NCBI RefSeq assembly: GCF_024502345.1
Contig: NZ_JALDNN010000002.1
Reading direction: 5' to 3' (one strand)
DNA from: Escherichia coli
GTDB lineage: Bacteria; Pseudomonadota; Gammaproteobacteria; Enterobacterales; Enterobacteriaceae
Length of the DNA stretch: 64,000 bases
Shown: piece by piece, positions 23,101-29,100 of the stretch
Numbering within the stretch: the stretch's first letter is position 1
How the letters are laid out: each line of letters opens with the position of its first letter
Position numbers: made by a program

Positions 23101-26100
23101 ATATGACAGTGAAACCGTGCAGGACGTCATGCTGGGTGCCGTGGAGCGTCGCTTCGGTAACAGCCTGCCGACATCCCCAGTTGAGTGGCTGACAGACAAC
23201 GGTTCAGCCTACCGTTCTTATCAGACGCGTCAGTTCGCCAGAATGGTAGGACTGGAGCCTAAACATACGGCGGTACGTAGCCCGGAAAGCAACGGGATGG
23301 CAGAGAGCTTCGTGAAAACGATGAAGCGCGATTACATCAGCATCATGCCGAAACCCGACGGGTTAACAGCGGTAAAGGGGTCGGTTCCGGCTGAGGGCGA
23401 AATGACACCCTAAGCGTTAGCTCTGTGTCGTTGCACGATGTCAGCGACGGTATTCTTGCTGATACCGAGCTCGCGTGCGATCCAGCGATAGCTGCGTCCC
23501 TCGGCCCTCATCGCAACCACCTTAGGCAAAAGTCGGTCTGATTTTGGTCGCACTCCGGCCTGACGACCAAGCCTCTTACCACGTGCCTTCGCAACAGCAA
23601 GGCCTGACTTGACCCGCTCGCTGATGAGATCCCGCTCAAACTCCGCAATGCCGGAAAGAAACGTCGCCAGCATTCGTCCATACGGCGACGAAAGATCGAA
23701 CGCCATTCCATTCATGGCTATCACGGAAACCTTCCAGTTCTCCAGTTCACGTAGCGTATTGAGCAGATCGAGCGTCGAGCGCCCCCACCGGGAAAGCTCA
23801 GTGACCAGGATTGCATCAATTTGTCTGGACTGGGCAAGCGCCAGGACTTTCTTTCGCTCGGCCCGGTCGAGTTTAGTTCCTGAACCTGTTTCCTTAAATA
23901 TTCCCACCACGTCGTAGCCGGCACGGCCGGCGAAGGCTCGCAGATCAAATTCCTGGCGTTCACAAGACTGATCCGCTGTTGAAACCCGGCAGTAAAGGCA
24001 CTGTTGCAAATAGTCGGTGGTGATAAACTTATCATCCCCTTTTGCTGATGGAGCTGCACATGAACCCATTCAAAGGCCGGCATTTTCAGCGTGACATCAT
24101 TCTGTGGGCCGTACGCTGGTACTGCAAATACGGCATCAGTTACCGTGAGCTGCAGGAGATGCTGGCTGAACGCGGAGTGAATGTCGATCACTCCACGATT
24201 TACCGCTGGGTTCAGCGTTATGCGCCTGAAATGGAAAAACGGCTGCGCTGGTACTGGCGTAACCCTTCCGATCTTTGCCCGTGGCACATGGATGAAACCT
24301 ACGTGAAGGTCAATGGCCGCTGGGCGTATCTGTACCGGGCCGTCGACAGCCGGGGCCGCACTGTCGATTTTTATCTCTCCTCCCGTCGTAACAGCAAAGC
24401 TGCATACCGGTTTCTGGGTAAAATCCTCAACAACGTGAAGAAGTGGCAGATCCCGCGATTCATCAACACGGATAAAGCGCCCGCCTATGGTCGCGCGCTT
24501 GCTCTGCTCAAACGCGAAGGCCGGTGCCCGTCTGACGTTGAACACCGACAGATTAAGTACCGGAACAACGTGATTGAATGCGATCATGGCAAACTGAAAC
24601 GGATAATCGGCGCCACGCTGGGATTTAAATCCATGAAGACGGCTTACGCCACCATCAAAGGTATTGAGGTGATGCGTGCACTACGCAAAGGCCAGGCCTC
24701 AGCATTTTATTATGGTGATCCCCTGGGCGAAATGCGCCTGGTAAGCAGAGTTTTTGAAATGTAAGGCCTTTGAATAAGACAAAACGCTGCCTCATCGCTA
24801 ACTTTGCAACAGTGCCATAAAATCCCATTCAGACGCCGGATAGATTCAAGCAAGCCAACTTGTCGTCAAAATCGGTGTTGCAAAAACGGGAGTGACCATA
24901 GATTCCGTTTTCTGAGACGACCCCAAACAGGTGTCGGGAAATTTCGTTGAGATATTTTGAAGGAATCACAGTGTAAGCAGGCGCTTTTTCAGGGAGGCGC
25001 GTTCTTGCGGGTTGCGTCCCTTGTGATTGGCGATGCGATCCGCCGTGGCGGCCTGGCGCTTGACGGGCCAGTAGGAGCGGCCATCCTTGCCCATCGACCA
25101 GACGCTGCTGGCCTGGTTTTCCAGCAGGGGCAGATGGGCGCTCAGGGCTTCGGGCGACGCGCTGGTCAGCGCCGTGCGCTCACGGGTGCGCCAGCGCTGA
25201 TGCCAGAGCTTCTTGTCCTCGCGCTCGCTGCCGCAGGTCGTGTGCCCGACGATGGGTGTTTTGCGGCGGCTGCGGCTCATAACGTAGTGGTCTCCAAGAA
25301 CATTCAGGACTGATCCCAGGCGTCGATGGTCAAGACCTGATCGGCAGGACAGGCGGCTACGCGGTCGGGAACTGGATGGTGTTCAGTCTCATGCCGACCC
25401 CATTCGATTGATCGCGTCGCTTGCGGCACGCTGCGACGCAAGGAGGTTTGCGACCTGGTTTAGCAGCCGTGTCCGCTGCATGTCTGTTACCTATCTCCCC
25501 GACCGCTCATTGGACCAACTCCAGAGATTGGGCTCTATCGCTCAGCCAATACGAAACCGGCATTGGCTGATGCCACAACCGAGACTAACACAAATGGCTC
25601 GGTACCTGTATTTCGCGCCCCGTGCACTTGGCCCGGTCTTGCCACGGCTATCTCACCTTCCCTGAGGGCACGAACAATCCCATTGCCCTGAAAGTAATCA
25701 GCCATTCCCGACAAAACAGTCCACGTGTCTTGGCCGTGAGGATGAATGTGAGCCGCAATTTCCTGCCCGGGATGGACATGCCAAACCACGATAATTGAGT
25801 CTCGGGTTTCAAGCACAACGGAACGAATAGGCTCGCCTTCGGACGGCTGAACATACTCGGCTACAGAAAATATTCTCGATTCAACAGTCATCGGAGATCC
25901 CTCTTTCACAGTTGTCGTTACGGTCTTCATCGTCGGCATCCTGACGCACGGCGGGCAATTGCTGGAGCAACGCCGGCAGCCATTCCTGTACCGTCTCCCA
26001 CACCACATCGAGGTTGATGTCGAAATAGCCGTGAGCCATGCGATTACGCATATTGCGCATGCTGCGCCACGGCACGTCGGCATGCGCCTGGGTGAACTCG

Positions 26101-29100
26101 ACGTAGCCATCCATCACCTTTGTGGCCGCCTCGCCGATGACGATCAGGCTCATGATGACGGCCTGCTGGGTGCGCTTGTCGGCCAAGAAGTCGTCCTTGG
26201 CCATCCCTTCCACGAAGCTGCGCGCATCGGTTGCGGCCTGCTGAATGTGGTCGAGGTAATCGGGCAGGCGGTTCTCGCTCATATCGGTTGCGCCTCCGCG
26301 AGCACCTTGGCCCGGAACTTCGGCGGCAGGTCGCCGGGAGTCAGCAGATCGACGTCAACGCCGAGCAGCGATTTCAGTTCTTCTTCCAAATCGCCCAAGT
26401 CCAACAACGTGGCACCGGGCAGCGCATCGACCAACAGGTCGAGGTCGCTGCCATCCCGGTCGGTGCCATGCAGCACCGAGCCGAAGACGCGCGGGTTCGC
26501 GGCGCGAAAGCGGCCTACCGCTTCACGCACTGCGCTTCGCTTCATGTCAAGCACAACAGACGGTCGCATGCGCATCCTTTCTTATCGAAACTCGTTGAGA
26601 TGATATGCAATCAAGAATAGAATTTCAAGAACTTGTATGGGTCCACCACATATTGCAATTTTTACTCTCACGTAAAATATAGTCCACTGGCGTCATCAGT
26701 TCGAGTGATTTATGTGGCCTTTTGCTGTTATACAGCACCAGATATTCAGCCATTCTTTGATTAAACAAATTCAGGTCCTCAAAAAGCAACAATTCATTGA
26801 ATTCAATAAATTGTTCTCTAAGTGTCCGGTTAAATCGCTCACAGGTCGCATTCATTTTCGGTGTGTACGGATAGGTCCAGATGTGTTTAATCGAGGCTTC
26901 CTGTAGCGTTTTATCAAAGTTACCGAGGAACTCCTTACCGTTGTCAGTGACAACTTGTCTGATAGCGACAGGAAAGAGCTTTGTGGCCTTGCTGAAGAAA
27001 TGGCTGGTAATATGGCACTGTTGCAAAGTTAGCGATGAGGCAGCGTTTTGTCTTATTCAAAGGCCTTACATTTCAAAAACTCTGCTTACCAGGCGCATTT
27101 CGCCCAGGGGATCACCATAATAAAATGCTGAGGCCTGGCCTTTGCGTAGTGCACGCATCACCTCAATACCTTTGATGGTGGCGTAAGCCGTCTTCATGGA
27201 TTTAAATCCCAGCGTGGCGCCGATTATCCGTTTCAGTTTGCCATGATCGCATTCAATCACGTTGTTCCGGTACTTAATCTGTCGGTGTTCAACGTCAGAC
27301 GGGCACCGGCCTTCGCGTTTGAGCAGAGCAAGCGCGCGACCATAGGCGGGCGCTTTATCCGTGTTGATGAATCGCGGGATCTGCCACTTCTTCACGTTGT
27401 TGAGGATTTTACCCAGAAACCGGTATGCAGCTTTGCTGTTACGACGGGAGGAGAGATAAAAATCGACAGTGCGGCCCCGGCTGTCGACGGCCCGGTACAG
27501 ATACGCCCAGCGGCCATTGACCTTCACGTAGGTTTCATCCATGTGCCACGGGCAAAGATCGGAAGGGTTACGCCAGTACCAGCGCAGCCGTTTTTCCATT
27601 TCAGGCGCATAACGCTGAACCCAGCGGTAAATCGTGGAGTGATCGACATTCACTCCGCGTTCAGCCAGCATCTCCTGCAGCTCACGGTAACTGATGCCGT
27701 ATTTGCAGTACCAGCGTACGGCCCACAGAATGATGTCACGCTGAAAATGCCGGCCTTTGAATGGGTTCATGTGCAGCTCCATCAGCAAAAGGGGATGATA
27801 AGTTTATCACCACCGACTATTTGCAACAGTGCCCTATCCTGCGCCTGAATACTAGATTGTCAGATATGCAGGCAATAATGGAAGAAACACAGGCTTTTGA
27901 AAACCGTGTGCTTGAGCGTCTGAATGCTGGCAAAACCGTCAGAAGCTTCTTGATTGCCGCCGTCGAGTTACTGACCGAGGCGGTCAATATTCTGGTGCTT
28001 CAGGTGTTCCGCAAAGACGATTATGCGGTGAAATACGCCGTCGAACCGCTGCTGGACGGTAGCGGCCCGCTGGGCGATCTTTCGGTCCGGCTCAAGCTTA
28101 TCTATGGGCTGGGCGTGATTAGCCGTCATGAGTATGAAGATGCGGAGCTGCAGATGGCGCTGCGTGAAGAGCTGAACCATGACGGCAGCGAATATGCCTT
28201 CACGGATGATGAAATTCTTGGGCCGCTGGGTGAGCTGCACTGCGTCTCTGCCCTGCCGCCCGCGCCGCTCTTTGACGATAGCGATGCCGACCTGCTGGCA
28301 ATGCAAAAACAGCGCTATCAACAGGTCGTTCGCTCAACGATGGTACTTTCTCTGACCGAGCTGATTTCCCGAATCAGCTTGAAAAAAGCCTTTCAGAAAT
28401 AACACCGTCAAACTTCTTTCGCCTGGTTCTCGACCGGCTGATAAAGTTTGCGGTAGTGTTCTAATCGCTCCAGAAACATCGCCGCTTTCTCTTCCGGGAT
28501 CTCTTCCGGTACGTGACTCAGGCGAGGTGATTTCTTCAGATACTCCATAAATGCCTGACTGGACGCCATAAAATCGACGGCTTTGTCGATGACTAGTGGT
28601 ACGTTTTCGCCAAGTTTGCCCATAACGTCGTCCTCCTCATGATTCCTCTCTTCAGAATGGACAATTAAGGGCGATCCGTTTGAGGAAAATGTGCGGATTC
28701 TCGTGACGGCATGCTAAAAAAGAGATCTGCATAACCATTTCTCTTAAATTACAATAAATTCATGGGATTACTAAGGAAGGTGCGAACAAGTCCCTGATAT
28801 GAGATCATGTTTGTCATCTGGAGCCATGGAACAGGGTTCATCATGAGTCATCAACTTACCTTCGCCGACAGTGAATTCAGCAGTAAGGGGTCTGACGCTC
28901 AGTGGAACGAAAACTCACGTTAAGCGATTGTGGCTGAGAAAAACCAAAGGATCCGGCGAGGATCCTTTGGTGTGCTGACATGACCAGTTTCTTTTGGGAT
29001 ATTTTTTCCCTGCATGAAGTCCTTTATGTCCTGATCATAATGCCATTAAAAATTCTATGCTATGGCTTCGCTATTTTAGACATTCCCTAAGGAAGGTGCG

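Follow-up and report, generated by a model that had tools for sequence, protein, structure and literature searches.

HEPN/MNT genes lie beside tnpA in TnSod9 (Lima-Mendez et al., PMC7157771), and acquisition of Tn6374 stabilised the plasmid pBP136 in Shewanella (Stalder et al., PMC5501780). ISPa38 was published as an element of 6455 bp with 39-bp inverted repeats (IRs), which encodes a transposase as well as a resolvase and has six passenger genes (PMC12466754), and mcr-10 plasmid annotation already uses it as a reference element (PMC9431528). For IS26, a translocatable unit or pseudo-compound transposon needs direct copies of the insertion sequence (Hall 2022, PMC8722046; Varani et al. 2021, PMC7986276). 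Here, we analysed a 64,000-nucleotide stretch of the Escherichia coli contig NZ_JALDNN010000002.1 (assembly GCF_024502345.1), referred to as the window, in which two IS26 copies enclose a segment carrying the predicted toxin–antitoxin genes mntA and hepT. A sequence-only reading of this DNA had taken the segment for a translocatable cassette. Our results indicate that it is very probably a non-mobile, stepwise-built remnant of the Tn3-family (Tn21-subgroup) transposon ISPa38/TnPa38 that was caught between inverted IS26 copies, i.e., debris and not a cassette.

Origin and composition of the segment

The segment between the two copies, IS26-A and IS26-B, is a mosaic of four unrelated pieces, as resolved by BLAST against 72,556 plasmids (PLSDB) and a targeted comparison of nine fetched loci. 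The internal fragment of ISPa38/TnPa38 covers 1658 bp on the minus strand (24976–26633) and has a 231-bp internal deletion. Its first 937 bp (24976–25912) were 99.9% identical, and the following 722 bp (25912–26633) 100% identical, to the complete 6.46-kb copy of ISPa38 in the Aeromonas caviae plasmid pFBAOT6 (NC_006143, 71780–78234), whose Tn21-type IRs are identical to each other. The size and gene count of this copy agree with the published description of ISPa38/TnPa38 (PMC12466754). The query was a 6457-bp stretch of pFBAOT6 (locus L008, 3529–9985), comprising the element and one flanking base at each end; the window fragment corresponds to its positions 1473–3362. The native gene order is mntA–hepT–orf57–cupin–orf108–orf166–orf123–tnpR, divergent from tnpA. 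The collinear near-identity to the complete reference element identifies ISPa38 as the source of the DNA. A search of the 64-kb window for tnpA, tnpR, a complete terminal repeat, or any other part of ISPa38 found none of them, only 22 bp of one IR. The segment is thus a fragment of ISPa38 and not ISPa38 as an element, which is defined by tnpA, tnpR, and two 38/39-bp IRs.

The 51 bp to the left of this fragment (24925–24975, without strand assignment) belong to an IncN backbone, namely to the 3′ end of a DUF6710 gene downstream of traI/mobF. The same stretch occurs insert-free in pLEW517. The junction between the IncN and ISPa38 sequences sits in an 8-bp microhomology, AGCAGGCG (24976–24983). 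Further to the left, the outer 22 bp of the Tn21-type 38/39-bp terminal IR of ISPa38 (tnpA end; 24903–24924, minus strand, on which it reads GGGGTCGTCTCAGAAAACGGAA) are identical to both IRs of ISPa38 in pFBAOT6. They adjoin the last 86 bp of IS4321 (IS110 family; 24817–24902, plus strand), cut by IS26-A. A progenitor-like arrangement was found in the Enterobacter asburiae plasmid NZ_CP077412, in which a complete IS4321 lies at the same spot inside the tnpA-end repeat of a transposon of the ISPa38 family (locus L004, 3761–5086, of which 5001–5086 equals window 24817–24902).

On the right side, a 380-bp terminal fragment of ISKpn28 (IS481 family; 26634–27013, minus strand), cut by IS26-B, encodes the C-terminal ~126 aa of the transposase. 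It fits positions 173–283 of the 284 of the IS481-family transposase and is annotated as ISKpn28 in RefSeq. An intact ISKpn28 is located at the same position in pKSB1_9A_2, with the 6-bp target duplication AGAACT. ISKpn28 was seen at two positions in the 158-bp mntA–tnpA spacer (L002, 7700–8810 versus L009, 6650–7760): one after AGAACT, and the other, in NZ_CP021541, after AGAAGA with 80 bp missing. The native spacer (pFBAOT6, L008, 6880–6970) contains TTTCAAGAA twice, 80 bp apart; this repeat could represent a favoured target or be related to an operator or to res. The ISPa38 fragment of IncN plasmids has its end at ...CAAGAACT (pEC656_KPC, 8709/8710), the very nucleotide behind which ISKpn28 starts both in the window (26633/26634) and in pKSB1_9A_2.

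The window holds four IS26 copies (A to D). IS26-A (23997–24816, plus strand; 820 bp, 14-bp IRs GGCACTGTTGCAAA, DDE_Tnp_IS240 with E = 2.5e-48) and IS26-B (27014–27833, minus strand; 820 bp) are 100% identical over 820 bp but inverted relative to each other, and the 2197 bp enclosed by them are exactly 24817–27013. The outer flank of IS26-A is GCAGTAAA, where the serine-recombinase gene of the mcr-10 region is cut; that of IS26-B is CTATCCTG, beyond which lies an MltR-family regulator gene. Comparison of the 8-bp flanks of all four copies (n = 8) yielded zero matches, either direct or in reverse complement, and hence no target duplications. A 3-bp extension of the IS26 inverted repeat (ATA/TAT) was at chance level. 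These data bear out the outline drawn by the sequence-only reading, i.e., two oppositely oriented IS26 copies around 2.2 kb with no target duplications, and the genes it had placed there (mntA, hepT, a cupin gene, a 104-aa basic open reading frame (ORF), and a truncated DDE transposase) are all present and rightly identified. The segment is, however, made up of four unrelated pieces and not of a single one, and the overlap of hepT with the cupin gene and the length of 104 aa turned out to be artefacts of rearrangement.

For the distribution of the junctions, 300 bp of IS26 were added to the segment query on each side. The right junction, where the truncated ISKpn28 meets IS26, was found in at least 10 PLSDB plasmids. 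The left one, between IS26 and the truncated IS4321, occurred besides the window in only two of these, pI9455333_MCR10 and pEC81-mcr10; in the remaining ones, IS4321 continues. The differing distributions imply that the two inner junctions were made at different times. Beyond the window, the complete arrangement with both IS26 copies was present in 2 of the 72,556 plasmids, again pI9455333_MCR10 and pEC81-mcr10, at the same site by the mcr-10 region; a search for the unit in other plasmids, as had been proposed, thus returned two mcr-10 plasmids and a single site. Among complete E. coli genomes, 1 of 5,426 contained the full segment. The outer flanks (...CCCGGCAGTAAA and GTTATTGCTGAAATT...) do not differ between the two plasmids, which carry the inner segment in opposite orientations; this points to recombination between the inverted IS26 repeats. 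The window is continuous with pI9455333_MCR10 over 19517–27833 and differs only past IS26-B. An inverted 8-bp target duplication, as left by intramolecular replicative inversion by IS26, was absent from the flanks in the window, pI9455333_MCR10, and pEC81-mcr10; a shared 8-bp flank in pEC81-mcr10, suggested by BLAST extension, was really a 6/8 match and was dropped. Since IS26-A and IS26-B are inverted, a circular translocatable unit could not be excised from this locus. The view of the segment as a translocatable cassette is not supported, given the inverted copies, the missing target duplication, the separately made junctions, the single site, and the eroded ISPa38 content. The outer flank of IS26-B, given above for the window, reads GTTATTGC... 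in the sister plasmids, and this difference implies that a further IS26-mediated rearrangement separates the window from them.

These comparisons show a stepwise history. In ISPa38, the string from mntA to tnpR lies beside a divergent tnpA. The 231-bp deletion joined the 3′ end of hepT to the start of the cupin gene, and an internal piece, reaching from the truncated orf108 to mntA and 64 bp of the promoter spacer, was linked to the IncN DUF6710 gene at the 8-bp microhomology. ISKpn28 entered 64 bp upstream of mntA, and an ISPa38 terminal repeat carrying IS4321 arrived on the other side. IS26-B cut ISKpn28, and IS26-A later cut IS4321, linking the piece to the mcr-10 region. Finally, recombination of the inverted IS26 copies flips the inner segment, which is found in both orientations in the sister plasmids. 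As the window has no tnpA, tnpR, or complete IR and the IS26 copies are inverted, the segment travels only as a passenger of its plasmid, or through further IS26-mediated or homologous recombination.

The mntA–hepT pair and its relatives

The gene mntA (26279–26569, minus strand) encodes a minimal nucleotidyltransferase antitoxin of 96 aa (Pfam NTP_transf_2, PF01909, E = 4e-9, 37.1 bits versus a cut-off of 21), and hepT (25881–26282, minus strand) a HEPN/DUF86 RNase toxin of 133 aa (Pfam HepT-like, PF01934, 93.6 bits versus a cut-off of 23.5). RefSeq names the proteins merely 'nucleotidyltransferase' and 'HepT-like/DUF86'. The antitoxin gene comes first in the operon, and the two genes overlap by 4 bp (ATGA), a feature shared by Delftia chromosomal loci. 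MntA contains the motif G30-S31-x10-D42-x-D44, in which G30, S31, D42, and D44 are invariant in the relatives. HepT contains R79-x4-H84-x-Y86 (R79-N-R-M-A-H84-G-Y86), which is invariant in 26 homologues.

A phmmer search of HepT against the PDB gave no match, and a profile search was required. The profile of 26 sequences placed R79, H84, and Y86 on RNIAVHDY of the Shewanella oneidensis HepT SO_3166 (5YEP_B, E = 0.0025), and Y86 aligned to the Tyr mutated in PDB 6M6W ('Y104A'). The nucleotidyltransferase residues of MntA, on which the sequence-only reading had staked its identification, are present on alignment, D42 and D44 matching D39 and D41 of the S. oneidensis MntA SO_3165 (E = 0.23). The closest solved relative of MntA is the minimal nucleotidyltransferase 1WOT (E = 8e-15). 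The AlphaFold2 (AF2) model of HepT had a predicted local distance difference test (pLDDT) score of 85 and a predicted template modelling (pTM) score of 0.78. Its top 20 Foldseek matches in the PDB were all solved HepT/HEPN toxins, including AMPylated forms, with probabilities of 0.94–1.00 (1.00 for 16/20) and template modelling (TM) scores of 0.52–0.67.

Relative to pFBAOT6, the 231-bp deletion at 25912 removes orf57 (a 57-codon ORF) and the last five codons of hepT; it is shared by most enterobacterial copies. It provided HepT with a new 10-residue tail and created an 11-bp overlap between hepT and the cupin gene. Residues 1–123 of HepT are native, and the HepT-like domain spans residues 13–110. 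Upstream of mntA, the native mntA–tnpA spacer holds overlapping divergent sigma-70-like promoters (26595–26628), both of which were kept. The one predicted toward mntA (26628–26600, minus strand) reads TTGAAA-17-TATCAT, and the one toward the lost tnpA (26595–26623, plus strand) TTGAGA-17-TAGAAT. ISKpn28 begins 5 bp past the –35 box of the mntA-facing promoter and 64 bp upstream of mntA. Searched against Rfam, the segment (24817–27013) gave no match.

With its full-length genes, catalytic motifs, predicted fold, and native promoter, the toxin–antitoxin pair looks intact. Transcription of mntA–hepT probably continues from the retained native promoter, and the pair probably functions as a HEPN/MNT (type VII) toxin–antitoxin. 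By analogy with the solved systems, MntA would AMPylate Tyr86 of HepT and thereby neutralise the RNase, and free HepT would cleave RNA. Loss of the module would then free HepT and cause growth arrest, favouring retention of the carrier plasmid. Accordingly worded, the earlier suggestion that the unit could stabilise whatever replicon it lands in remains plausible for the plasmid-stabilising role of the pair, but the part on a translocatable unit landing in replicons did not survive.

More than 5,000 HepT homologues were found, the closest of which (83–93% identical) occur in Betaproteobacteria. In Delftia chromosomes, mntA and hepT stand alone as two overlapping genes, and the Delftia and Tn6374-like HepT proteins are 82–87% identical to that of the window. 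Metagenomic contigs and pS44-4 of A. salmonicida show a divergent tnpA next to mntA–hepT–tnpR, and a transposon variant of K. pneumoniae (pHS08204) has mntA–hepT–cupin–tnpR. The TnpA accession of pS44-4 is the one given as 96% identical to the Tn6374 TnpA (Stalder et al., PMC5501780). Judged from these gene layouts, ISPa38 is a Tn6374-like transposon with extra passengers, of which the window retains only the toxin–antitoxin end.

The 1709-bp core from the IncN backbone to mntA had hits in 2,557 PLSDB plasmids, 1,285 of them at 80% cover or more. The hepT gene was detected in 1,476 plasmids (at least 80% query cover in 1,445 of the 1,476), and at least 80% of the whole ISPa38 transposon in 268 plasmids only. 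All enterobacterial copies were at least 99% identical. A tentative idea, which we hold with rather low confidence, is that mntA–hepT with its own promoter may be a selected survivor of the erosion of ISPa38 (1,285 versus 268 plasmids). The orphaned transposon module would then work on its own, in addiction or defence, and aid the persistence of multi-IS resistance regions, here that of mcr-10. The same low confidence applies to the separate suggestion that orf108 could be a Tn3-family accessory factor.

Cupin gene, basic protein, and surrounding window

The cupin gene (25535–25891, minus strand; 118 aa, Cupin_2, E = 1.6e-12), which overlaps hepT by the 11 bp, is a passenger of ISPa38. It was considered as a conserved third component of the toxin–antitoxin system and rejected, as the Delftia chromosomal and Tn6374-like mntA–hepT loci are without a cupin and the overlap was made by the deletion. 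The cupin recurs in one related transposon variant, that of pHS08204.

The basic ORF, orf104 (24966–25280, minus strand; pI 11.3), is, like the cupin gene, a passenger, and encodes an altered copy of a conserved basic protein of 108 aa. In place of the six C-terminal residues RKWMSK, among them the nearly invariant K108, it has TL, and the last 2 codons and the stop are supplied by the IncN DUF6710 gene. The family of the native protein, orf108, comprises 306 close homologues and, at E ≤ 0.001, 633 cluster representatives. Conservation is seen in the motifs MSRSRRKTPI, SE..DK..WH.R.R, KDG, and R.L.KWM.K. Searches of orf104/orf108 against Pfam, NCBIfam, and PADLOC gave no match, and the AF2 model (pLDDT 82, pTM 0.49) had no meaningful structural match. 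Since orf108 is the first gene of the orf108–orf166–orf123–tnpR string in ISPa38, its product could assist resolution or transposition in the Tn3 family as a new accessory factor.

Homologues of orf108 (91% to 44% identical) adjoin RelE/Gp49–HTH toxin–antitoxin pairs, just downstream of these, in P. aeruginosa pS810b (5600–7400), which is a different Tn3-family setting, and in metagenomic contigs. A general role of orf108 as the third gene after toxin–antitoxin pairs, suggested by pS810b and by two metagenomic settings in which Gp49–HTH lies upstream, found no support as a rule: at 56 distant genomic loci, the upstream ORFs were heterogeneous, with HTH_3 in 4, Fic in 2, RES in 1, and an antidote domain in 1. 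Between the cupin gene and orf104, a spacer of 254 bp (25281–25534) contains a palindrome with a 7-bp stem (GCGTCGC...GCGACGC) and TGTCYG-type motifs (TGTCCGCTGCATGTCTGTTA). Because the genes from orf108 to tnpR overlap in ISPa38 in the manner of a single operon, a res site or the promoter of the tnpR operon might lie in this spacer.

The window as a whole is mcr-10 colistin-resistance plasmid DNA, close to pI9455333_MCR10 and pEC81-mcr10. A gene for a XerC-like tyrosine recombinase (18655–19731) lies upstream of an ORF for an MCR-10-family phosphoethanolamine transferase (20050–21717; match from residue 17, 1314 bits versus a cut-off of 1250). Between mcr-10 and the cut recombinase gene are the transposase ORFs of an IS2/IS3-family element (22218–23413; ISSen4 in the sister plasmids), the second of which shares its end with the recombinase gene. 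The latter encodes a resolvase/invertase-like serine recombinase (23410–23996, minus strand); its first codons were lost to IS26-A, and the listed ORF (23410–24069) takes its start from within IS26. The MltR-family transcriptional regulator gene just outside IS26-B covers 27836–28402. The region 28769–30292 then contains an IS5-family element, with a transposase ORF at 29336–30139 and terminal repeats at 29088–29106 and 30271–30289; an extra 117-bp copy of its left end (28771–28887), 99% identical to 29087–29203, lies 316 bp upstream. IS26-C is located at 31231–32050 (minus strand). IS26-D (61849–62668, plus strand) has two mismatches versus the other three copies, C129T and C789G, and is thus a variant IS26 or an IS15-type copy with a separate history. 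The region 42696–44368 is 92.5% identical to traK–oriT–stbA/stbB of the IncN plasmid pEC656_KPC, though related plasmids were typed IncFIA/IncFII.

Competing explanations and comparison with known systems

It is highly improbable that the IS26-bounded segment is a translocatable unit or compound transposon that moves a stabilising toxin–antitoxin pair between replicons. Two intact, identical IS26 copies stand at its bounds, and in NZ_CP077412 direct IS26 copies flank an extended form of the region, which demonstrates that a related pseudo-compound structure exists. In the window, however, the copies are inverted, while functional IS26 structures have direct repeats; target duplications are absent in both direct and inverted form, the whole unit resides at one site in 2 of 72,556 plasmids and in 1 of 5,426 E. 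coli genomes, and the IS26 junctions have different histories. For the pair itself, retention as an anti-phage (abortive-infection) defence rather than for plasmid addiction appears unlikely. HEPN RNases are frequent defence effectors (Anantharaman et al. 2013, as cited by Lima-Mendez et al.), and MntA matches the PADLOC system PDC-S09 (E = 2.8e-26); this is, however, a candidate system only, HepT matched none of the PADLOC models, and the closest contexts of mntA–hepT are Tn3-family transposition modules and one experimental case of plasmid stabilisation.

Somewhat less improbable, yet still doubtful in our view, is that mntA–hepT is inert wreckage, silent or inactivated, the abundance of which reflects hitch-hiking with successful plasmids and insertion sequences. 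The altered tail of HepT, the cut 5 bp upstream of the –35 box, the loss of the conserved C-terminal residues from orf104, and the heavy erosion of the surrounding DNA would fit this explanation, and the identity of at least 99% among the enterobacterial copies leaves no readable signal of selection. Nevertheless, both genes are full length with every catalytic residue present, the HepT-like domain (residues 13–110) ends upstream of the changed tail, both promoter hexamers were kept, and hepT is covered to at least 80% in 1,445 of the 1,476 plasmids. An intact toxin gene is normally tolerated only with a working antitoxin. Neither the defence nor the wreckage explanation changes the conclusion that the segment is a non-mobile remnant of ISPa38.

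Several points weigh against this conclusion, or against the function proposed for the pair. The sequence matches to the solved HepT and MntA are weak (the E values of 0.0025 and 0.23 given above), and both proteins score below the NCBIfam equivalog cut-off of 60 (HepT_toxin, NF047751, 37.4 bits; MntA_antitoxin, NF047752, 36.2 bits), which implies that the pair represents a divergent branch of the HepT/MntA family; for such a branch, the toxin–antitoxin function is a prediction. The C-terminal tail of HepT is non-native, although the model predicts disorder for it and it falls beyond the domain. Owing to the near-identity of the plasmid copies, their abundance could reflect hitch-hiking and not selection for the pair. 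The junction formed by illegitimate recombination in the IncN plasmids coincides to the nucleotide with the insertion point of ISKpn28, and the order of some rearrangement steps was deduced from the handful of plasmids compared. We nonetheless hold the remnant interpretation with high confidence.

The segment is a common, already catalogued scrap of resistance plasmids. For annotation, it teaches that inverted IS26 pairs should not be named translocatable units, as the apparent cassette is layered debris of ISPa38, IncN, ISKpn28, and IS4321 DNA. Should the orphan HepT/MntA pair be active, it could contribute to the maintenance of the mcr-10 colistin-resistance plasmid, and of ~1,500 others with these genes, in their hosts without antibiotic selection. 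Such stabilisation is already established for related transposon-borne toxin–antitoxin modules, so that its confirmation here would be incremental.

Compared with ISPa38, the window shares orf108, the cupin gene, hepT, mntA, and the mntA–tnpA promoter spacer. It holds ~26% of the element and is without tnpA, tnpR, orf166, orf123, and both complete IRs. The window further differs by the 231-bp deletion, by an orf108 that is cut and fused to IncN DNA, by ISKpn28 in the promoter spacer, and by an IR fragment that lies on the wrong side of the internal fragment. The IncN plasmids of the pEC656_KPC type, with the order traI, truncated DUF6710 gene, mntA–hepT–cupin–orf104, and the remaining DUF6710 part on the nuc side, are 100% identical to the window over 24925–26633, including the junction AGCAGGCG. 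In these plasmids, the fragment is followed by the rest of DUF6710 and the leftward backbone continues, whereas in the window ISKpn28 follows and the ISPa38 IR with IS4321 takes the leftward place.

In TnSod9, Tn6374, and pS44-4, the HEPN/MNT genes adjoin tnpA as in ISPa38, and HepT and MntA of pS44-4 are 82% and 88% identical to the window proteins, respectively. These are complete mobile transposons of ~4.4 kb with tnpR directly after hepT. Relative to TnSod9 and Tn6374, ISPa38 has a further ~2 kb of genes separating hepT from tnpR, partly kept in the window; the likeness to Tn6374 lies in the layout and, for pS44-4, in the TnpA accession. The S. oneidensis HepT–MntA (SO_3166/SO_3165; 5YEP, 6M6U, 6M6W, 7BXO) and Aphanizomenon HEPN–MNT (7AE2–7AE9) systems match in fold (Foldseek probability 1.00, TM score 0.60–0.67), in Rx4HxY with the tyrosine that is AMPylated there, in GSx10DxD, and in the antitoxin-first order. 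They differ from the window pair, which is known from sequence, by an identity of ~20% and by the size of MntA (96 aa here versus 139 aa in SO_3165). The likeness to IS26 pseudo-compound transposons and translocatable units lies in the two intact IS26 bounds and in the absence of flanking duplications, which is common for IS26 structures. The copies in the window are inverted, however, and the behaviour seen is inversion, not translocation.

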